From: Bacteroidaceae bacterium
GTDB lineage: Bacteria; Bacteroidota; Bacteroidia; Bacteroidales; Bacteroidaceae
Direction: 5' to 3'
Assembly: GCA_045654445.1 (NCBI GenBank)
Contig: JAZONI010000128.1
Span: 1-63,755, forward strand
DNA length: 63,755 nt
In this document: piece by piece, positions 55,789-63,755 of the stretch
How the letters are laid out: each line of letters opens with the position of its first letter
Position numbering within the stretch: the stretch's first letter is position 1
Notes under the pieces: model-generated
What the model saw: only the letters and a program-made list of their open reading frames with translations
Told to the model about the DNA's origin: nothing
Database searches by the model: none
Position numbers and translations under genes: made by a program

Positions 55789-56010
55789 ATGTACTGGACA
55801 CTTGAATTGGCATCAAAATTGGAGGATGCACCATGGCCCGCAACCAAGGAAGAGTTGATCGACTATGCTATCCGTTCGGGCTCACCCTTGGAGGTAATCG
55901 AGAACCTGCAGGAAATCGAAGACGAAGGCGATATCTACGAGAGCATCGAGGACATCTGGCCCGACTATCCTAGCAAGGAAGATTTCTTTTTTGACGAGGA
56001 GGAGTATTGA
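55789..56010 (+). CDS. DUF2795-like small acidic protein
   Basis: 73 aa. WPATKEELIDYAIRSGSPLEVIENLQEI matches the DUF2795 pattern. It has its own -7 box and a 14-bp terminator hairpin. Confidence 0.65.
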   Translation: MYWTLELASKLEDAPWPATKEELIDYAIRSGSPLEVIENLQEIEDEGDIYESIEDIWPDYPSKEDFFFDEEEY

Positions 56011-56042: not shown

Positions 56043-56083
56043 ACAAATGGGTGACCCGTGGGTCACCCATTTGTCGTTTCTGT
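56043..56083 (+). terminator. Terminator-like hairpin after the DUF2795-like gene
   Basis: Perfect 14-bp stem acaaatgggtgacc / ggtcacccatttgt with loop cgtg, followed by a weak T tract cgtttctgt. Confidence 0.6.
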
Positions 56084-56173: not shown

Positions 56174-57817
56174 ATGAAACATCGAGTAGCGCTATACTTA
56201 CTCCTCGTAGCCACCCTCTGCATGGGATGTGGCGGAAGCCTCAGTATGCGCCAACTAGAGCAATTGGAGGCACGGATGAACGATGCGCCGGACTCGGTGC
56301 TCACCGTGCTTACCGCTACCGACATGCCGCGCTGGGGCGAGCGTCGTGCGCTGTATGCCCTGCTGCGCACACAAGCCGACTACAAGTGTTTCGTACCCAT
56401 CACCTCGGACAGCCTCATCCGCTATGCCACCGACTACTATGATGGCAATCGCAAGAGCTACCGTGCAGCCATGGCCCACTACTCCTTGGGATGTGTATAC
56501 TCCGAGCTGAAGGACGATGCTGCTGCCATCGAAGCTTACCTACGGGCTCAGAGCCTTTTTCCCGATACTACGGTACGCTACTATCGATTATGCTATCAGA
56601 ACTTGGGACACCATTACTTAAAGAAGAATATGGCTGATGAGGCATTAACAGCATACACGCTTTACCATAATTCTGCAGAAGGCAACGAACAATTATGTGC
56701 AAGTATTGGCTTGGCACAATCTTATATTCACAAAGGACATTCGAAAGAAGCTGGTAAAATTTTAAAGGATTTACTCCTTTATCCCGATAACATTGCTGCA
56801 AAAGAACTTAAAATTATTCTCTTCGAGTTGGGAAAGATTGAGTATGCATTTAATAGGGATTACACCAAAGCCGAAGAATATTTTGACCAGCTTATCGCAT
56901 TGTACAACGAAAGTGAAGTAGCTGCTGCCTATTGGTTCAAAGGTGATATCGCTGAAACACGCGGAGACACGGAATCAGCCATACAATATTATAAAAGAGC
57001 TATGGCAGATGAAAACAACACCTATCTCCTCTATAATTGTGCCCGTAGCTTACAATATCTATCCATGGACTCCATTAAGCAGCCCGAGCTATACAATTAT
57101 GTAAAGCTCTTCGAGCAGATGGGCGATTCCATCCACCGCATTGAGCGCCGTACCGAGATTGACGAGATACACACCGCCCACGCCATGGAGCTGCATCAGC
57201 GTGAACTATCGGAGAAGCACAAAAGATTCATGTACATCGTCACATTGCTGCTCGTATGCCTACTGGCAACTATAGCTATCGGCGTGCTCCTTGTCGAGCG
57301 TCGTCGCAAGCAGCACTACTTCCATCTGCAACAAGAACTGCAGCGCAACCAGGCCAAGGTGTACAAGATGTACGAGTCCATCGAGGAGAAGCGCGACAAT
57401 GGAGCACTCATGCGCGAGCAGGTGCTTACGCTCTATCGCGCCAACCTGAGCGGTAGTATCGATCTTTTCCATCGTGAGAGTTGGCACAGACGACTGCAGC
57501 AACTCAGCGAGCTGCGCAGCAAGGACGTTCCCTCATTCACCATCAAGGAGCGTGAGCAATTGGCCGAGGTGCTCGAGCGCTGCTTCATCACCGTCATCAC
57601 CAACCTGCGCGACGAGGCAGCAAAACAAGACGGACGACTCAGTGCCGAAGACATCCACCTCTGCCTGCTGCTCTCGCTCGGATATTCCATCGGTGTCATC
57701 CGCGAATGCCAAGCCGCAGCAAGCGATGATGTCATCCGCAAGCGCAGAGTTCGACTCTCAGGCAAGCTACCCGAAGACCTCTTACAAGCAATCCAAAAAC
57801 CAGCCACAAACACCTAA
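56174..57817 (+). CDS. Membrane-anchored TPR sensor with cytoplasmic coiled-coil and LuxR/GerE-like HTH (one-component regulator, tentative)
   Basis: Signal/lipobox (LCMGCGG), ~330 aa of TPR-like repeats and one TM (MYIVTLLLVCLLATIAIGVLLV). The C-terminus LSAEDIHLCLLLSLGYSIGVIRECQAAASDDVIRKRRVRLSGKL resembles a LuxR-type HTH. Start moved to ATG 56174, because the track's 56051 start lies inside the upstream terminator hairpin. Confidence 0.6.
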   Translation: MKHRVALYLLLVATLCMGCGGSLSMRQLEQLEARMNDAPDSVLTVLTATDMPRWGERRALYALLRTQADYKCFVPITSDSLIRYATDYYDGNRKSYRAAMAHYSLGCVYSELKDDAAAIEAYLRAQSLFPDTTVRYYRLCYQNLGHHYLKKNMADEALTAYTLYHNSAEGNEQLCASIGLAQSYIHKGHSKEAGKILKDLLLYPDNIAAKELKIILFELGKIEYAFNRDYTKAEEYFDQLIALYNESEVAAAYWFKGDIAETRGDTESAIQYYKRAMADENNTYLLYNCARSLQYLSMDSIKQPELYNYVKLFEQMGDSIHRIERRTEIDEIHTAHAMELHQRELSEKHKRFMYIVTLLLVCLLATIAIGVLLVERRRKQHYFHLQQELQRNQAKVYKMYESIEEKRDNGALMREQVLTLYRANLSGSIDLFHRESWHRRLQQLSELRSKDVPSFTIKEREQLAEVLERCFITVITNLRDEAAKQDGRLSAEDIHLCLLLSLGYSIGVIRECQAAASDDVIRKRRVRLSGKLPEDLLQAIQKPATNT

Positions 57818-57837
57818 TATTCAAATATTTACCACCA

Positions 57838-57845
57838 CCCCCCCC
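57838..57845. repeat. Poly(C)8 homopolymer tract in the regulator-DUF3244 spacer
   Basis: accaccaCCCCCCCCatttt, counted directly from the sequence. Confidence 0.9.
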
Positions 57846-57926
57846 ATTTTCAAGACAAAAAGTAAGGACAATAAAATGTCTTGTTTTTGTCTTGCTCTTT
57901 TTTCGTCTGATACGCTGCATTGGGTC

Positions 57927-57934
57927 TACCTTTG
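57927..57934 (+). promoter_or_regulatory. Putative -7 box TACCTTTG for the DUF3244-like/lipoprotein operon
   Basis: Exact match followed by cagcg, 36 nt upstream of ATG 57970. Confidence 0.45.
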
Positions 57935-57969
57935 CAGCGTTTTTTATAATCATTAAAATTAAATTCTGT

Positions 57970-58308
57970 ATGAAAAAAGTTATTATGTTTGCTGCGCTGC
58001 TCTGTTGCGCATTGTCGGGTTTTGCCGAGAAGAAACCTATTAGAATAGAGATAGATGAACGGCCTCTTGAACGTACCGAAATTCAATTACCCACCGTCTC
58101 TATTGAGGAGAACCTATTGACCATTGAGTTCCCCTCAAGCACCACCTTCAGCGTGTCTATTGTGAGCAATGCCGGTGAAATGGTATACTCCGGTACATAC
58201 AGTGCAGAAATGGCGATCCTCACCTTGAGCAATCTTTCTGCAGGCGAGTACACCTTGGTTATCAAGGATGGAAGCCATGCCTATAGTGGTGAGTTTGATG
58301 TAGAATGA
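57970..58308 (+). CDS. DUF3244-like small exported beta-sandwich protein
   Basis: 112 aa with a signal peptide. LLTIEFPSSTTFSVSIVSNAGEMVYSGTY...LSNLSAGEYTLVIKDGSHAYSGEF is the pattern I associate with DUF3244. A -7 box lies at 57927-57934. Confidence 0.6.
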   Translation: MKKVIMFAALLCCALSGFAEKKPIRIEIDERPLERTEIQLPTVSIEENLLTIEFPSSTTFSVSIVSNAGEMVYSGTYSAEMAILTLSNLSAGEYTLVIKDGSHAYSGEFDVE

Positions 58309-58327
58309 TAGACATAAAAAAGGATAT

Positions 58328-60130
58328 ATGATGAAAAAGAAATTTATTTTGGCTATCTTTGGCATTAGTTTGCTATTTACGGCATGCCAAGAAGAAACGT
58401 ATTTCAACGAGTATTGTGGGGATGACAGCAGTTCGTCTATACTGACCGAAACGATGAAACTGATAGGTGACAACTACGACCATGTGACCTTACCTGACTT
58501 AGGGAAAACCTTGGGTGGAAACACTGCTACCCGTGGACGTGGCAGCAAGAAGCACTCCATGTCTTTGGAGGATGAGGATTTCACCTTCGACTGGAACAAT
58601 GCAGAAATCATCAGTAGCAGTAAGGCTGAAGCCGCCATCGTGTCTGTGAAGCAAAACAAGGAGATAGCTTTACAGAGCGTAGTGGCGAAAGGGAATCTCC
58701 ATCGCGAAGAGACCACACCGTTACACTCCATCCTCTATGTACGCAAGTTTCTCAATGACGGGAAATCGTATGCCCATATCCTCTCCTTTGCGCCAGACAG
58801 AGACTATGCCAACGCTTGCGAAGAGCGGGGCGAAGAGATGCAGCTATACCCCAATCCACAAGGGAGCAACTATAGCGGTATACTCTTTGTTTCCAACATT
58901 TACGGCGAGATTTCCCACGGCATACGTTATGAGAATGGCCGCATGTGCCACTACATCCTGCCCCGTTCGGAGAAGAACAGGGATTTCATAGAGAAGTACA
59001 GAAGTGAGCACTCCGAGTGTCACGGCACCGAACATTGCGACTCAGCGCATACACACACGAAAATGAGCATGAGTTTCATTACCGTCAGCGGCGCCACTCG
59101 CAGTACCTATTCCACCCGTAGCGAGTACACTGGTGGTGGCAGCAGCGGTGGCAGTGGTTACACTTGCAGCTTCTGCGGAAAAGATGTTTATGATTGTACT
59201 TGCGTAGAGATTGTGGCCTGTGGCGTATGCAAGAAGGACCCCTGTGTATGTTATGAAAACATGGAACCGGAAGAGGAGGAAAGATGTGTTTATTGTGGAT
59301 TCCTGAAAGAATACTGTCAATGCTATAATGATTCTTGGCAAGATGATTATGGTAACTCGCATGGGCCTAATCCAGGAAATCCCTATCCCAATAATCCTGG
59401 CAATAACTCGGGAGGGAATTCGGGGAATGATGGAAACACTAATTCTAAGCCGAGTGAAGATGTACTATTGTTAGGCAAAATAAGTTCCACGATAACTGGT
59501 GCAAATATTGATAGACTGAATTCTGCATTAGCAAGTTTTAAAATAAATCCTTTTTGTGCAAAGATTTATGCACTGCTATCGGCTGAGGATATAAACCCTG
59601 ATGTCACGTTTTCTATTGAACAGCATTATGATAAAGATAACAACAAGATCGAAGCAGGCTTTATGCCAGAATACAATAAGATTGTATTCTTCAATGGCAC
59701 TTATATCGATTATGAGCACATATTGGAAGAGCTGATACACGCGACTCAATTCCATTGTTTTGACAGTGAGAAATTCACAAATTCAAAAGGCAATATCGAG
59801 TTAGAAGCTAAAATGACTAAAGATCTTATCCGTCATTTAACCTATGGGTGTTGTGATACCTACTTGACGAGTTTTTACGACATAAATAGCGAATTAATGA
59901 AGGAGTATACTGAATGGTTATATTATGGAGATAATACTGAAAATAAAGAAAACCCTGAAAAGCGTAAGCCTAAAGATTATAGCAATTATGATTCTTGGTA
60001 TCAGAAATTATTGCCAGACTTTAATTATCCAGGAGTAACTGTAAATATGAAAGATACTACCCATCCTTTTTTAGATGAGTTTTATAAAGAAATAAAAGAC
60101 ATAAAAATAGAAGACAATGAAGACAATTAG
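58328..60130 (+). CDS. Modular surface lipoprotein: N-domain, 3x Cys-knuckle, G/N/P linker, AT-rich C-terminal domain with EELIHxxQ motif (candidate effector)
   Basis: 600 aa. The lipobox LLFTAC is followed by QEE (acidic surface-export-like signal). C280-C332 carry three CxxC-x(4-6)-CxC units. aa 340-376 are Gly/Asn/Pro-rich. aa ~378-600 are encoded by markedly AT-richer DNA. Confidence 0.75.
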   Translation: MMKKKFILAIFGISLLFTACQEETYFNEYCGDDSSSSILTETMKLIGDNYDHVTLPDLGKTLGGNTATRGRGSKKHSMSLEDEDFTFDWNNAEIISSSKAEAAIVSVKQNKEIALQSVVAKGNLHREETTPLHSILYVRKFLNDGKSYAHILSFAPDRDYANACEERGEEMQLYPNPQGSNYSGILFVSNIYGEISHGIRYENGRMCHYILPRSEKNRDFIEKYRSEHSECHGTEHCDSAHTHTKMSMSFITVSGATRSTYSTRSEYTGGGSSGGSGYTCSFCGKDVYDCTCVEIVACGVCKKDPCVCYENMEPEEEERCVYCGFLKEYCQCYNDSWQDDYGNSHGPNPGNPYPNNPGNNSGGNSGNDGNTNSKPSEDVLLLGKISSTITGANIDRLNSALASFKINPFCAKIYALLSAEDINPDVTFSIEQHYDKDNNKIEAGFMPEYNKIVFFNGTYIDYEHILEELIHATQFHCFDSEKFTNSKGNIELEAKMTKDLIRHLTYGCCDTYLTSFYDINSELMKEYTEWLYYGDNTENKENPEKRKPKDYSNYDSWYQKLLPDFNYPGVTVNMKDTTHPFLDEFYKEIKDIKIEDNEDN

Positions 60131-60641
60131 TTTTGTATTAATGACTGTAGCATTGATTTTCTCATTTGAAATGAAAGCTCAATGCTCATATGAAAAATCC
60201 GGGAATCTTTTTGAGTTACGATATACTCCAACGTCAAAAGAATCTAAAGGTAACCTTATGAAATTCAAAACAGGTGACCCAAACTATGAATATCTACAAG
60301 CAGAAGTATACAATCAACTTGTGCTATGCAACTATCAAAAACAACTATCTGATGCTTTTGCGGATGTATTGCCTATTGAATTGCGAAAATCGATGAAGAA
60401 TTTGAAGATTTTCATGCGTTTCAAAATGGATGTTTCTGGCAATATTCATGACATAAGTTTTACATCTAAAGAGGATTTTCAGCACATAATTACCAAAGAA
60501 TGGTTGGAAATGATAGTAAACACCATACAATCAATAAATGTATCAATAACAGTAGATGAAACAAAAATAGAGTCGTATTATAAGGATAAGGAAGGTTTGT
60601 TTTGGGTTCATTTCACCTTTCCACCTTATTATTGGAAATAA
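60117..60641 (+). CDS. Small exported protein, 14-nt overlap with upstream lipoprotein gene (candidate cognate partner/immunity)
   Basis: 174 aa with a signal peptide (MTVALIFSFEMKAQ). It has the same low-GC composition as the 3' cassette of the upstream gene. Its ATG 60117 lies inside the upstream ORF, whose stop is at 60128-60130. Confidence 0.6.
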   Translation: MKTISFVLMTVALIFSFEMKAQCSYEKSGNLFELRYTPTSKESKGNLMKFKTGDPNYEYLQAEVYNQLVLCNYQKQLSDAFADVLPIELRKSMKNLKIFMRFKMDVSGNIHDISFTSKEDFQHIITKEWLEMIVNTIQSINVSITVDETKIESYYKDKEGLFWVHFTFPPYYWK

Positions 60642-60688
60642 CAGAAATAATACTCCAATAATATCTATAATTGTTTAATATCCGCAAT

Positions 60689-62134
60689 ATGCCCACCCTC
60701 TTCACAACCCAACAGTCATCAGCAAGTACAGCGATAATTCGTTCTCTTGTGAAGGGGGCTATTGCCTTTGCTTGCCTGCAAGCCACTATCGTCTATTTGC
60801 AGATGATAGGGCTTGCATCCTCCAACCACGACACGTTTGCCGTGACTGGAACGTTCGGCAATCCAGCTCCTGTTGGAGGATTCTTGGCTATCTGTGCATC
60901 CTTGGCATTGCATCAGAGCTTCTATTCCACCAAGCGTTGCCCGTGGGTCGCCATTACCTGCTACCTATTGGTAGCCTGTGCACTGACCGACTCGCGGGCA
61001 GCTCTGTTGGGATTCATCGTAGCTATGGTGGTAGTCTTGCTTGTGAGGTTTCGCATCCCGAGCAAGCGGCTCAAGTATTCAATCTTTATCGGGCTTCCCA
61101 TTGTGGGTGTCTTGTTGGTTGCGGGCATGTATCTCTATCGCCCACAATCGGCCGACGGGAGGTTGCTTATCTGGAAGATATGCGTTAAACATATCATTGC
61201 CGAGAAACCATTGTTTGGACATGGCATGGGCAACTTTCACCGCGAGTATATGCCGGCGCAGGCTACGTACTTTGCATCGGGTCGTGCTACAGAGGCTGAG
61301 ATGTTGCTTGCATCAGACAATACACATGCATTCAACGAGTTTATACGCATTGCGTGCGAATATGGTATAATGGGAGTATTGCTGAGTGTTCTTCTTTTGT
61401 TTGTCATCATCTATAGTGGTGTCAATGAGTTTACCTCGCTGCGCGGTGGGGCTGTCGTAGCATTGGTGTGCGGCATCGTCTTTGCCTGTTTCTCCTATCC
61501 CTCCGATGTGCCGTTGCTTTGCCTGTTGTATACTGTATTGATAATCTGTGCCCTGCCACCGCTACCATTCGATAGGCGTAAACGGCATATATTGTATATT
61601 GGTATCAGCATCGTTGCCATCGTCCTTATTACCAGCAGCGCATCGCATGGTATTCGCTATCATCGTATGGAGAAAGCCTTGTCGAAACTCTTGGTCAGCG
61701 ATGACAAGGACAACAAGGCATATATCAAGAATGAGATCATAAACATTGCCGACAATGAGCGCATCCTCTCCCAATATGCCTACACATTATGTAAGAAAGG
61801 CCAATACAGGGATGCCATCCCTATACTGGAACGGAGCATATCACTGTTTCCTACGGCTGCAAAGGTGCTGGACTTGGGCGATGCCTACAAGGAAACCGAG
61901 CAATACGACAAGGCTGCCGAATGTTACGGAACGGCTGCCAATATGCTCCCTGCATATATCACTCCACCCTACAAGTTCTTTTCGTTGTACGAAGAACTGG
62001 GCATGAGCGATAGGGCACTCGAATATGCCGAACATATAGACACAATGAAGGTAAAGGTAGCGAACAAGCGAACCGAGAATATAAAAAAAGAGATATCGAT
62101 GTTTGTACTAGCTAACCCACAATCTTATAGGTAA
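60689..62134 (+). CDS. O-antigen ligase/Wzy_C-family membrane protein fused to C-terminal TPR repeats
   Basis: Polytopic N-terminal part with LTDSRAALLGF and NTHAFNEFIRIACEYGIMG (Wzy_C-like loop). The C-terminal ~130 aa are TPR-like (GQYRDAIPILERSISLFP...EQYDKAAECYGTAANMLP). Start at ATG 60689. Confidence 0.7.
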   Translation: MPTLFTTQQSSASTAIIRSLVKGAIAFACLQATIVYLQMIGLASSNHDTFAVTGTFGNPAPVGGFLAICASLALHQSFYSTKRCPWVAITCYLLVACALTDSRAALLGFIVAMVVVLLVRFRIPSKRLKYSIFIGLPIVGVLLVAGMYLYRPQSADGRLLIWKICVKHIIAEKPLFGHGMGNFHREYMPAQATYFASGRATEAEMLLASDNTHAFNEFIRIACEYGIMGVLLSVLLLFVIIYSGVNEFTSLRGGAVVALVCGIVFACFSYPSDVPLLCLLYTVLIICALPPLPFDRRKRHILYIGISIVAIVLITSSASHGIRYHRMEKALSKLLVSDDKDNKAYIKNEIINIADNERILSQYAYTLCKKGQYRDAIPILERSISLFPTAAKVLDLGDAYKETEQYDKAAECYGTAANMLPAYITPPYKFFSLYEELGMSDRALEYAEHIDTMKVKVANKRTENIKKEISMFVLANPQSYR

Positions 62135-62143
62135 CAACAAAAA

Positions 62144-63755
62144 CATGAAGATTAAGTGCACAATCATTATCACCCTCATCGCAACGGCAGCCATAGTCAC
62201 ATTCCTCCTCGTATACCACGCCTCGCACAGCACCGATGAGATGGTGCGCCGCCGTGCGGTGATAGCTTACTACCACTTCATGCGCTGCAGTGCCGAGAGA
62301 CGCGAGGCGGCACGCTACCTCCTTGACAATATGCCCTATCACTATGGCTATGGCGTGACAGTACACGACAGCAAGGAGGTGAAGCGCTGGGCAAAGGAGA
62401 CTACAGAGACCTTGCGCAACCTGCTGGATGAGTATGGGCTATATCAGATTCCCAGCGACACCATCCGCTCCCTCTGTGACGAGCGTCGTGCCGACAGCCT
62501 CGCCATGCAACGCATCGACAAAGAAGTGAGGTCGGAATTCATCCCTGTCACGGACGGCAGCCAAGTGACGACCGCTTTCCTCATCCGCCACATCAACCAT
62601 GCTTTCAAGGTGTGGCGCACATTACCATTTGCCAAGGATCTCACCTTCGATGAGTTCAAGGAATATATACTACCCTACAAGGCATTCAATGGCTATGGTT
62701 TCTTAGAGTCGGCCGATACCTATGCACACCTGTTCGAAGGGTTGATTGATGTGGATTCTATCAATAGCCGGGAAGATTGCATCCGTGCCTATAATTATGT
62801 ATTGCGCACGTTGCGCGACCTCACCGGACATAAGGAGTGCGAGGGCCGCAAAGGACTCTACGACCTCTTCTTCAGCCGTGCTCATGCCTGTGATGATCTG
62901 GCTGCGTATGCCTGCTGTATATTACGTTCAATGGGGGTGCCTGTTACCGTGGAGCATACCGTAGGCTATCGCTCTTTCACGGGCATGCACTATTTCTGCT
63001 CGCTCTACGATGCCGACAGCAAGGACTGGGAGACCTATAACCCTGAAGCCTCAGACCCTACGTTATATTGGGACGAAGAAGAGAACCTTAACATCTATCG
63101 CAACACCTACGGAGCACAACGGGATACACCCTACTTCCTCCATGCCGAGGGTGAGCATGTGCCCGACGAACTTTCCAATCCCTGCATGATAGATGTGACA
63201 GAGCATGTGAAGCCTATTCATTCGGTGACGTTACCTATCCACGGCTATGGAGAGAGCAACCTTGCCTACCTCGCCACCTTCAACCGCGCCATGCCCGATG
63301 CACTGCTGCATACGACATGGGGTGTCATCGACAAGGAGTATAGTATGGTTACTTTCGAACATGCAATGCCTCATGTACTCTACTTCCCCGTGTACTATCG
63401 CGGCACAACGATGGAGTTTTTCGGCACCCCGTTCTACCTTGACGAGAGAGGCTGCATGAACTACCTACCCCATGTGGATAGCGACAGTGAAGGGACAATG
63501 GAGGTAAGCCTCACGCGCAAGTACCCCCGCAAGAAGAACATGATAAAGGCTGCCGAGGAATTGGTGGGCAGTGTGTTTATCGGCAGTAACGACCGCAACA
63601 TGAGACAGGTCGACACGCTCTACCGCATTACTACCGCTCCCGACCCTGCATTTATGGAGTATCGCTTCGCCCATCCCAAGGCATATCAGATATACCGCTT
63701 CGATGCCTCTCCAGCTTCGGGAAAGGCACACATCGCCATGCTCGAATGGGTGACC
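62144..63755 (+). CDS. Transglutaminase-like cysteine-protease-fold protein with discoidin-like C-terminal region (3' end outside window)
   Basis: Frame hand-checked as open from ATG 62144 to the window end. N-terminal TM, core FSRAHACDDLAAYACCILRSMGVPV...GMHYFCSLYDADSKDWETYNP (Cys-His-Asp layout). It starts 10 nt after the upstream stop. Confidence 0.7.

Follow-up and report, generated by a model that had tools for sequence, protein, structure and literature searches.

A group of six co-directional genes (g1 to g6, Table 1) lies at the end of a 63,755-nt stretch of DNA from a Bacteroidaceae bacterium (assembly GCA_045654445.1, contig JAZONI010000128.1), which is called the window here. Judging from comparison with related loci, this group is probably a self-regulated antagonism module of rumen and gut Bacteroidales, with a swappable lipoprotein toxin (g3) and an immunity gene (g4). 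The initial annotation had proposed one regulated surface-modification or antagonism system. The idea of such a system was supported, and antagonism is better backed than surface modification.

The reading is carried by a replaceable cassette, which comprises the C-terminal domain of g3 (hereafter C-domain) and g4. Related loci and proteins are numbered with L and P. Up to position 59432, the window DNA was 91.6% identical to L005 and 85.4% identical to L091. In the following 1254 bp, there was no DNA similarity to either locus. Identity was regained at 60687 (L005) or 60760 (L091), i.e. at or just after the start of g5. The guanine-cytosine (GC) content of the cassette was 0.318, the lowest of any stretch of this length in the 63.7-kb window (mean: 0.481, standard deviation: 0.057).

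Six g3 homologues had aa 1 to ~330–370 in common (58–87% identity), followed by a PF01551 M23 peptidase domain. The remaining homologues carried at least five very divergent subtypes of an EE[LFI][ILV]HAxQ … ELEAK domain. The M23-type homologues were paired with an unrelated partner family. In 11 toxin/partner pairs, the similarity of the partners followed that of the C-domains (Spearman rho 0.91, for which no p-value is claimed because the pairwise comparisons are not independent) and not that of the N-parts (rho −0.16). Two toxin/partner pairs were found in tandem in L090 (7175–17426), with near-identical N-parts and different heads. Export signals were present in both partner families, which implies a periplasmic target, and the M23 alternative supports this.

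By sequence, g3 thus resembles a polymorphic toxin: a constant N-part is combined with alternative C-domains, and a co-varying candidate immunity gene follows downstream. The effector/partner pair suggested in the initial annotation was strongly supported by the cassette structure and the co-variation. These comparisons firmly establish that the lipoprotein is polymorphic and that its exported partner co-varies with it, within a cassette of foreign composition. From this we infer toxicity of the C-domain and immunity by g4, which is a candidate periplasmic immunity protein. In one case (P0026, 703 aa), toxin and partner, including the signal peptide of the partner, were fused in a single open reading frame (ORF). 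The single frame may be genuine (a fusion or read-through) or may stem from a sequencing or annotation error.

The C-domain is widespread. Its profile matched 537 clusters (50% identity) at E ≤ 1e-3 among 1.84 billion representatives, and no Pfam family was found for these proteins. It was always C-terminal, in proteins of 170–650 aa with varied N-parts. Many of them were lipoproteins with acidic residues after the lipobox cysteine. The invariant residues were E467, E468, H471, Q474, E491, E493, K495, D499 and W530. They include the motif E467-E468-x-x-H471-A-x-Q474, followed by E491-x-E493 on the next helix. In an AlphaFold (AF2) model of the C-domain alone (predicted local distance difference test, pLDDT: 90; predicted template modelling score, pTM: 0.89), the invariant residues were located on two consecutive helices. 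A Foldseek search of this domain against the PDB gave no significant match (best: anthrax lethal factor, E 0.53). The weak fold matches were zincins, namely anthrax lethal factor, vibriolysin and deuterolysin (E 0.5–7, TM-score up to 0.33). In a viral library, IrrE-N/SprT-like minimal metallopeptidases appeared at E ≥ 0.07, the best library match had an E of 0.03, and none was significant. Given these weak matches, the C-domain is possibly zincin-like. The model of full-length g3 was confident in the C-domain only (pLDDT 53.7 overall), and its fold search gave noise from the disordered N-part.

The g3 protein itself is rare. Its homologues formed 29 clusters among 5.8 billion proteins, all metagenomic or from Bacteroidaceae metagenome-assembled genomes. 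Scanning JGI metagenomes with the g3 profile gave just two loci, and an exact look-up of the window g3 found no record. The homologue alignment showed four parts: a conserved N-part, an invariant ATRSTYS motif, a G/N/P/S linker and the C-domain. The N-part contains a domain of ~125 residues (within aa 80–235), which was common to 49 of 148 wider-family proteins. A search with a profile of this domain, limited by a word prefilter, gave only two proteins. The ATRSTYS(TRS) motif (aa 256–265, nt 59093–59122) was invariant. At aa 280–332 (59165–59323), three CxxC-x(4-6)-CxC units with 12 invariant cysteines follow. Against PDB sequences, this cysteine-rich part weakly matched the eL43 zinc ribbon (E 0.04). 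Much longer CxxC…CxC arrays were seen in the wider-family proteins P0187 and P0198. Redoxin-like and MauE proteins are encoded in related clusters, and this suggests extracytoplasmic disulfide or metal chemistry.

A motif x-[KMT]-T-R-[SA]-x was also found in unrelated lipoproteins encoded in these clusters (ATRSTYSTRSEY in g3, RRVKTRSEYTG in L005, RRMTRSAG in L010 and PIKTRSES in L039). TR[SA] occurred 29 times in the N-parts of 93 wider-family proteins, compared with 5.8±2.5 (a maximum of 15) in composition shuffles. The motif may be a processing or modification site, and we regard it as a lead, not a result.

The initial annotation had made co-conservation of the genes a test of the system idea. 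The full set (regulator, DUF3244 protein, lipoprotein, partner, Wzy_C::TPR protein and transglutaminase-like protein) was found in L001–L004, L013, L089, L090 and L092, with unrelated flanks. Around these loci and around L005 and L091, different genes lay in each case, namely rhamnose/arginine genes (L001–L004), glutamate dehydrogenase (L005), BNR/PglZ (L090), ParAB (L091) and an ABC transporter (L092). In the window, they are a dGTPase and a cobalamin adenosyltransferase. The protein identity of the relatives to the window was 67–81% for g1, 59–83% for g2, 66–86% for g5 and 24–77% for g6. Contigs with g3 homologues encoded a final protein of 639–697 aa after the Wzy_C::TPR protein. The hosts were gut and rumen Bacteroidales, i.e. 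metagenome assemblies of Bacteroidaceae and Prevotellaceae.

Homologues of g6 were more frequent (115 clusters). Scanning one genome per species with the g6 profile gave 75 loci, which were annotated with locally built hidden Markov models. For the core count in Bacteroidota, we used the 31 species-representative loci that had 5 kb or more of flanking sequence on both sides. A Wzy_C gene was found within 10 kb of the g6 homologue in 30 of the 31 loci and was directly adjacent in 12. The regulator was present in nine and DUF3244 in six of them. Among the Wzy neighbours of g6 homologues, 51 of 52 matched Pfam Wzy_C and 30 of 52 matched TPR. Twelve shorter g6 homologues from Cloacimonadota, Zixibacteria and Ignavibacteria had no Wzy_C, regulator or DUF3244 neighbours.

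Given the 30 loci with Wzy_C and the Wzy_C::TPR neighbours, the core of the locus is therefore the pair of a Wzy_C::TPR protein and a g6 homologue. The recurrence of the gene set in unrelated backgrounds bears out its co-conservation, and the neighbourhood is far beyond chance. The comparison of sequences firmly supports both the conserved neighbourhood and the core pair. Regulator and DUF3244 are a head that is restricted to a Bacteroidaceae/Prevotellaceae subset, and the genes between head and core are variable cargo. The locus is hence modular, and its order varies. In L005 (1562–13740), for example, the order differs from the window: the module begins with cargo genes for 333, 206, 95 and 174 aa, a Wzy_C gene of their own (518 aa) and the g6 orthologue, and only then come the g3-like toxin, the partner and a second Wzy_C::TPR gene. 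L091 lacks regulator and DUF3244.

The cargo in Negadavirga, Spirosomataceae, Pedobacter, Odoribacter and plasmid pPvulCL10_1 consisted of 6-bladed beta-propeller lipoproteins, NVEALA-type small proteins and a redoxin-like lipoprotein. Sometimes, signal peptidase I, MauE or an outer-membrane efflux pair was added. On the 92.5-kb Phocaeicola vulgatus plasmid (NZ_CP096966.1, 37662–59188, L093), the order was NVEALA, 6-bladed propeller, redoxin, LepB, O-antigen ligase and transglutaminase. As pPvulCL10_1 carries such a cluster, the core pair is plasmid-borne in human gut isolates. Another cargo in the same slot was a lipoprotein of ~200 aa with CSEDE…AERRMTRS… and an FHTHT motif (L010 7162–8349, L029 6783–8283, L027 4605–6420). 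The FHTHT motif is reminiscent of JAB/MPN metal sites, and there was no Pfam match. This lipoprotein was followed by exported ORFs of ~160–235 aa (one in L029, two in L027).

The second line of evidence concerns regulation. The g1 protein has a lipobox (LCMGC), a periplasmic TPR domain (Pfam) and a transmembrane segment at about aa 385–405, followed by RRRK. Its cytoplasmic C-terminal tail resembles a helix-turn-helix (HTH): LSAEDIHLCLLLSLGYSIGVIRECQAAASDDVIRKRRVRL. When aligned to GerE with hhalign, the tail was in register with the HTH of GerE, with weak values (E 0.0099, probability 4%). Orthologues of g1 (67–81% identity) head the same cluster elsewhere. The DNA between g1 and g2 was conserved even where protein identity was only ~67%. 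It contains a poly-C tract, a tandem direct repeat and a sequence that fits TAnnTTTG (Table 1), the consensus of the Bacteroidetes −7 promoter box. Promoters were searched for with this consensus, and a sigma-70 scan was set aside as irrelevant for Bacteroidetes.

In 12 of 15 independent loci, a word of 7 nt or longer was exactly repeated at an offset of 9–12 nt (500 shuffles: mean 0.76, a maximum of 4). In 10 loci, the gap between repeat and TAnnTTTG was 29–34 nt. The repeated word differed between loci, with both copies changing together: TTGTCACTAT in L013, TTTGGATG in L027 and TTGTTAG in L028. A word of the TTGGACAA type was found in L010, L018, L029 and L020. The same word went with the same predicted recognition helix of the regulator, i.e. 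YPRQTVWxRIK with GGACAA-type words and SSDDV[IV]RKRRV with TGTCTTG. L013, with a different word, had a different helix (SADNVVNQRKR).

Because the repeated word differs together with the predicted recognition helix, the tandem repeat is likely the operator. DNA binding by g1 is supported indirectly, since this candidate operator co-varies with the helix. In terms of sequence comparison, it is firmly established that the loci carry a tandem-repeat promoter element that is specific to each locus and varies together with the regulator. This comparison is good evidence for g1 as a DNA-binding regulator acting at the g2 promoter. The earlier suggestion of a regulated system thereby gained comparative support from the conserved promoter and the repeat that changes with the g1 C-terminal helix. 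The length of the poly-C tract differed among near-identical relatives (C8 in L001 vs. C9 in L089; C11 in L005 vs. C10 in L006). Where the regulator was divergently transcribed, the tract was poly-G. The length change could be slipped-strand phase variation or a homopolymer assembly error.

The g2 protein has a signal peptide and matched Pfam DUF3244 (PF11589; 41.6 bits vs. a cut-off of 25, E 1.2e-10) as well as PDB entry 3sd2 (E 0.0044). A sorting domain of the type IX secretion system was considered for g2 and rejected, as Por_Secre_tail was below the cut-offs (22.5 vs. 27 bits in Pfam and 19.9 vs. 23 in NCBIfam). The g5 protein matched Wzy_C (PF04932; 66.2 bits vs. 31.7) and TPR and has ~9 transmembrane segments, as read from the sequence. 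Its TPR tail is predicted to be periplasmic because a basic loop (DRRKRH) precedes the last transmembrane segment (positive-inside rule). A reading of g5 as the N-module of a split TgpA was not supported for g5 itself: there was no TgpA_N match in g5 and a match in only 3 of its 52 relatives (best E 3.7e-9). The three matches hint at a relationship of the Wzy_C family with the membrane module of TgpA.

For g6, a signal anchor was read at the N-terminus, and many homologues have lipoboxes. Transglut_core (PF01841) was matched neither by g6 nor, at E up to 1, by the 91%-identical full-length relative P0030. The distant homologues P0136 and P0138 matched it in the equivalent region (7.6e-9 and 2.1e-9). 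C250 and H283 were invariant in 101 homologues, and the NCBI label of the P. vulgatus homologue is 'transglutaminase domain-containing protein'. Against PDB sequences, g6 gave a spurious Sel1 match only. By its homology to members that match PF01841 and by its conserved Cys and His, g6 is placed in the transglutaminase-like superfamily. A discoidin-like C-terminal domain is indicated by sub-threshold F5_F8_type_C matches in homologues and, for g6, would lie beyond the window. The initial label of g6 as transglutaminase-like with a discoidin-like end was therefore borne out through the distant homologues for its first half, not by a Pfam match on g6 itself, and stayed below the threshold for its second half. 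The other domain labels, i.e. TPR in g1, DUF3244 in g2 and Wzy_C with TPR in g5, were recovered by Pfam, except for the HTH of g1, which neither Pfam nor NCBIfam detected. No Pfam family was assigned to g3, g4 or g6, and NCBIfam added none.

The following mechanism is proposed. A periplasmic cue would be sensed by the TPR domain of g1. The cytoplasmic tail of g1 would then act on the tandem TGTCTTG repeat and activate the g2–g6 operon from the TAnnTTTG promoter. The lipidated g3 would be exposed at the cell surface or on outer-membrane vesicles, which is proposed because acidic residues follow the lipobox cysteine. Its C-domain would be an antibacterial enzyme in the periplasm of the target, probably a hydrolase of zincin-like type whose site is EExxH…E, and the exported g4 would be the cognate immunity protein. 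The comparisons show that C-domain and g4 are exchanged together by recombination, while the N-part stays constant. Most speculatively, g5 and g6 might mature the extracytoplasmic cargo, e.g. by releasing it as a Cys protease at the enriched T-R-S/A motif or by attaching glycans to it, and g2 might work with the regulator or the cargo. Such roles of g2, g5 and g6 in cargo processing or modification are only putative.

Several observations weigh against an antagonism module. Most loci with g6 and Wzy_C carry other neighbours (propeller lipoproteins and NVEALA-like peptides), and regulator and DUF3244 are missing from most core loci and from L091. P0157, a toxin with partner, has no adjacent Wzy_C or transglutaminase gene and stands alone with two small exported ORFs that are weakly g4-like. 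As there are toxin pairs without Wzy_C/transglutaminase and core loci with other cargo, the accessory pair is not toxin-specific. The C-domain had no significant structural or sequence match (PDB, viral library, Pfam). It lacks the canonical HExxH zinc motif and has EExxH instead, so its enzymatic activity is a guess. The g1 tail, with its HTH undetected by Pfam and NCBIfam, had no PDB sequence match either. The T-R-S/A motif occurred in only 23 of 93 wider-family proteins, and the comparisons behind the partner correlation are mutually non-independent.

A broader role of the core pair can be considered. Here, g5 and g6 would be an unrecognised Bacteroidota-wide machine that matures, sorts or releases cargo (lipoprotein toxins, NVEALA-type proteins, propeller lipoproteins) via a T-R-S/A-type signal. 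Its role would be sortase/exosortase- or LapG-like, under the control of locus-specific TPR-transmembrane-HTH regulators with co-evolving operators and possibly a phase-variable poly-C. We offer this as a tentative proposal, with the odds against it.

Among the explanations other than antagonism, a dedicated extracytoplasmic protein-modification or sorting system that is no weapon survives best, and it is unlikely. In such a system, g5 would be a PglL/TfpO-type O-oligosaccharyltransferase that binds its substrate through the TPR tail and adds glycans to lipoproteins encoded nearby, in their Ser/Thr-rich T-R-S/A region. The g6 protein, with a transglutaminase fold and a discoidin-like end for glycan binding, would cross-link or trim them; g3 would be a surface enzyme and g4 its chaperone or inhibitor. 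The Wzy_C family does include O-oligosaccharyltransferases that are encoded beside their substrates. The Wzy_C::TPR architecture is general in the g5 family, the core travels with many types of lipoproteins, and unrelated ones share the Ser/Thr-containing motif. The sub-threshold F5_F8_type_C matches of g6 homologues fit as well. However, no glycosyltransferase or flippase genes were found within the examined clusters, and T-R-S/A is unlike the known O-glycosylation sequon of Bacteroidetes, D-(S/T)-(A/I/L/V/M/T). Moreover, modification leaves the cassette replacement, its low GC content, the tandem pairs and the co-variation of the partner unexplained. It is partly compatible with antagonism, and the two are not exclusive.

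Housekeeping remodelling of the cell's own wall is quite improbable. It would involve a LytM/M23-type or related hydrolase lipoprotein with a regulator protein, an O-antigen ligase/polymerase for lipopolysaccharide or capsule and a TgpA-like transglutaminase. The M23 domain in some g3 homologues, the Wzy_C nature of g5 and the extracytoplasmic location of every product agree with it, as do the three of 52 Wzy_C neighbours with TgpA_N, which suggest a split TgpA-like pair. On the other hand, a housekeeping gene is hard to reconcile with just 29 g3 homologue clusters, with differing chromosomal sites of the locus, and with a C-domain and partner that are swapped as a low-GC cassette and occur in tandem duplicate copies.

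It is equally doubtful that two or more independent units merely adjoin here, i.e. a toxin-immunity pair inserted beside an unrelated Wzy_C/transglutaminase cluster and an unrelated regulator: toxin/partner pairs do exist alone, the core pair exists without g3, and L005 and L091 deviate as described, but the same six-gene set recurs in several divergent loci (60–70% protein identity) with different flanks, and P0146, a distant C-domain member, again has Wzy_C and an evident homologue of g6 (E 3e-162 against the g6 profile) as neighbours, then a small exported ORF that is weakly g4-like. The spacing within g2–g6 is also tight or overlapping, and no strong + strand terminator was predicted inside; g2–g6 are likely a single operon.

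The putative antagonism module shares much with known polymorphic toxin systems (CdiA-CT/CdiI, Rhs, MafB; PMC3482391): the N-terminal trafficking part is constant, the C-terminal toxin domains recombine, a co-varying immunity gene lies directly downstream, and there are tandem pairs and compositionally foreign cassettes. The differences are in the trafficking part, where a lipobox, a novel ~125-aa domain and Cys-rich repeats were found and no T5SS, T6SS, T7SS (secretion systems of types V, VI and VII) or Rhs element. In addition, toxin domain and immunity family are outside Pfam, the immunity protein is exported, and the locus includes a dedicated regulator and the pair of Wzy_C::TPR and transglutaminase-like genes. 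Zhang et al. 2012 (PMC3482391) described lipobox-headed polymorphic effectors in Amoebophilus (APD1/2) and listed transglutaminase-type domains among the processing proteases of polymorphic toxins. An architecture of the g3–g6 type is not described there. Judging by sequence, a polymorphic toxin variant with an undescribed accessory module would be new here.

The closest functional analogue known to us would be SitA/SitI of Myxococcus xanthus, lipoprotein polymorphic toxins with delivery by outer-membrane exchange. Compared by its description, as outlined in PMC5562445, it likewise has toxins that are anchored through a lipobox and polymorphic at the C-terminus, with the immunity gene next to them, and by this likeness an outer-membrane or surface delivery route is plausible here too. 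It belongs to another phylum, and no TraA/TraB context was seen in our locus. SitA toxins are reportedly nucleases with cytoplasmic immunity proteins, whereas the partner here is exported, implying a periplasmic target.

Diffusible toxins of Bacteroidales (BSAPs, BcpT/BcpI, bacteroidetocins, CDCL; PMC11901371) share the bacterial order and the ecological role. Activation of BcpT is proteolytic, and its immunity protein is a small lipoprotein. A polymorphic lipoprotein with M23 or EExxH domains is not among the reviewed toxins (PMC11901371). In this 2025 review of warfare among Bacteroidales, M23, polymorphic toxins, transglutaminase and O-antigen ligase loci go unmentioned, as do such clusters in a 2023 paper on mining for ribosomally synthesised and post-translationally modified peptides. 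The clusters with NVEALA, 6-bladed beta-propeller, redoxin, signal peptidase I, O-antigen ligase and transglutaminase (pPvulCL10_1, NZ_CP096966) have the same Wzy_C and transglutaminase-like core, and some metagenome assemblies share the head of TPR-transmembrane-HTH regulator and DUF3244. They differ in that NVEALA-type small proteins and propeller lipoproteins replace the g3/g4 cassette. A full-text literature search found nothing functional on DUF3244 and no paper with 'NVEALA', and no study of such clusters was found under DUF5128/BF3164 or TgpA with O-antigen ligase.

TgpA of P. aeruginosa and LapG resemble the core pair in combining a polytopic membrane module with a periplasmic Cys-His domain of the transglutaminase fold. 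LapG is a periplasmic transglutaminase-like cysteine protease that frees a surface protein by cleavage; by analogy, it could serve as a model for the proposed role of g6. In contrast to TgpA, there are two separate genes here, g5 lacks TgpA_N and g6 is below the Pfam threshold for Transglut_core.

If the antagonism reading is true, gut and rumen Bacteroidales would have a further, new way to deliver antibacterial toxins, namely as surface or vesicle lipoproteins with swappable heads. The C-domain, with its 537 clusters and no Pfam family, would be a new toxin domain with a matching exported immunity family. The locus would also be a first starting point for understanding what the 'O-antigen ligase + transglutaminase' clusters do; these are widespread but unstudied in Bacteroidota and are also found on Phocaeicola plasmids. 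Finally, a compact regulator-operator pair with locus-specific recognition could possibly supply orthogonal switches for Bacteroides engineering.

Table 1. Coordinates of the genes and sequence features of the locus in the window
Feature	Position	Strand	Description
g1	56174–57817	+	547 aa; TPR/transmembrane protein, predicted regulator
g2	57970–58308	+	112 aa; small secreted protein with a DUF3244 beta-sandwich; opens the presumed operon
g3	58328–60130	+	600 aa; lipoprotein
g4	60117–60641	+	174 aa; signal-peptide protein; 14-nt overlap with g3
g5	60689–62134	+	481 aa; Wzy_C polytopic membrane protein with C-terminal TPR tail
g6	62145–63755 (window end)	+	first 537 of ~696 aa; membrane-anchored transglutaminase-like Cys-His protein; gene continues past the window
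g3 constant part	58328–59432	+	lipobox LFTAC-QEE, N-domain, ATRSTYS motif, Cys units, start of the G/N/P linker
Replaceable cassette	59433–60686	+	1254 bp; g3 C-terminal domain (aa 372–600) and g4
g3 C-terminal candidate toxin domain	59441–60130	+	EExxHAxQ…ExE motif; no Pfam family
Poly-C tract (C8)	57838–57845	+	between g1 and g2; ~35 nt upstream of the candidate operator
Tandem direct repeat TGTCTTG-N4-TGTCTTG	57877–57894	+	period 11; candidate operator for g1
TACCTTTG	57927–57934	+	fits the −7 box TAnnTTTG; 32 nt past the repeat, 35 nt before the g2 ATG
Hairpin terminator	56043–56074	+	strong, perfect 14-bp stem; 3' of the DUF2795 gene

ORF listing and translation confirmed six co-directional genes on the + strand. 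Of the gaps given in the initial annotation, 19, −14 and 47 nt were correct, and the last one is 10 nt instead of 9, with the g6 ATG at 62145. All six products are predicted to be exported or membrane-bound, as had been stated there, because signal peptides, lipoboxes and transmembrane segments are visible in the sequences. The hairpin terminator is the upstream boundary of the cluster, so g1 opens a new transcription unit. The DUF2795 gene before it (55789–56010) encodes a small acidic protein, is unrelated to the cluster and is missing from the flanks of the relatives. Rfam and tRNA scans of the region had no match, and PADLOC found no match to a defence system at the locus.

The GC content of the window is uneven (0.39 at 16–20 kb and 0.56 at 52–56 kb). 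A low-GC island that comprises the whole cluster was rejected, as the window is heterogeneous in this range and only the 1254-bp cassette is an outlier. Downstream of the cluster, L001 (15887–20662) and L005 (14646–20516) carry genes of the BT4734-like/VapE primase-like, DUF4248, HU-HIG, DUF6486 and Peptidase_M15_3 types. In L005 and L006, pairs of HEPN and nucleotidyltransferase genes were also present in this region; the window stops before the equivalent position. The downstream gene set of the relatives may be a mobile or hypervariable region.

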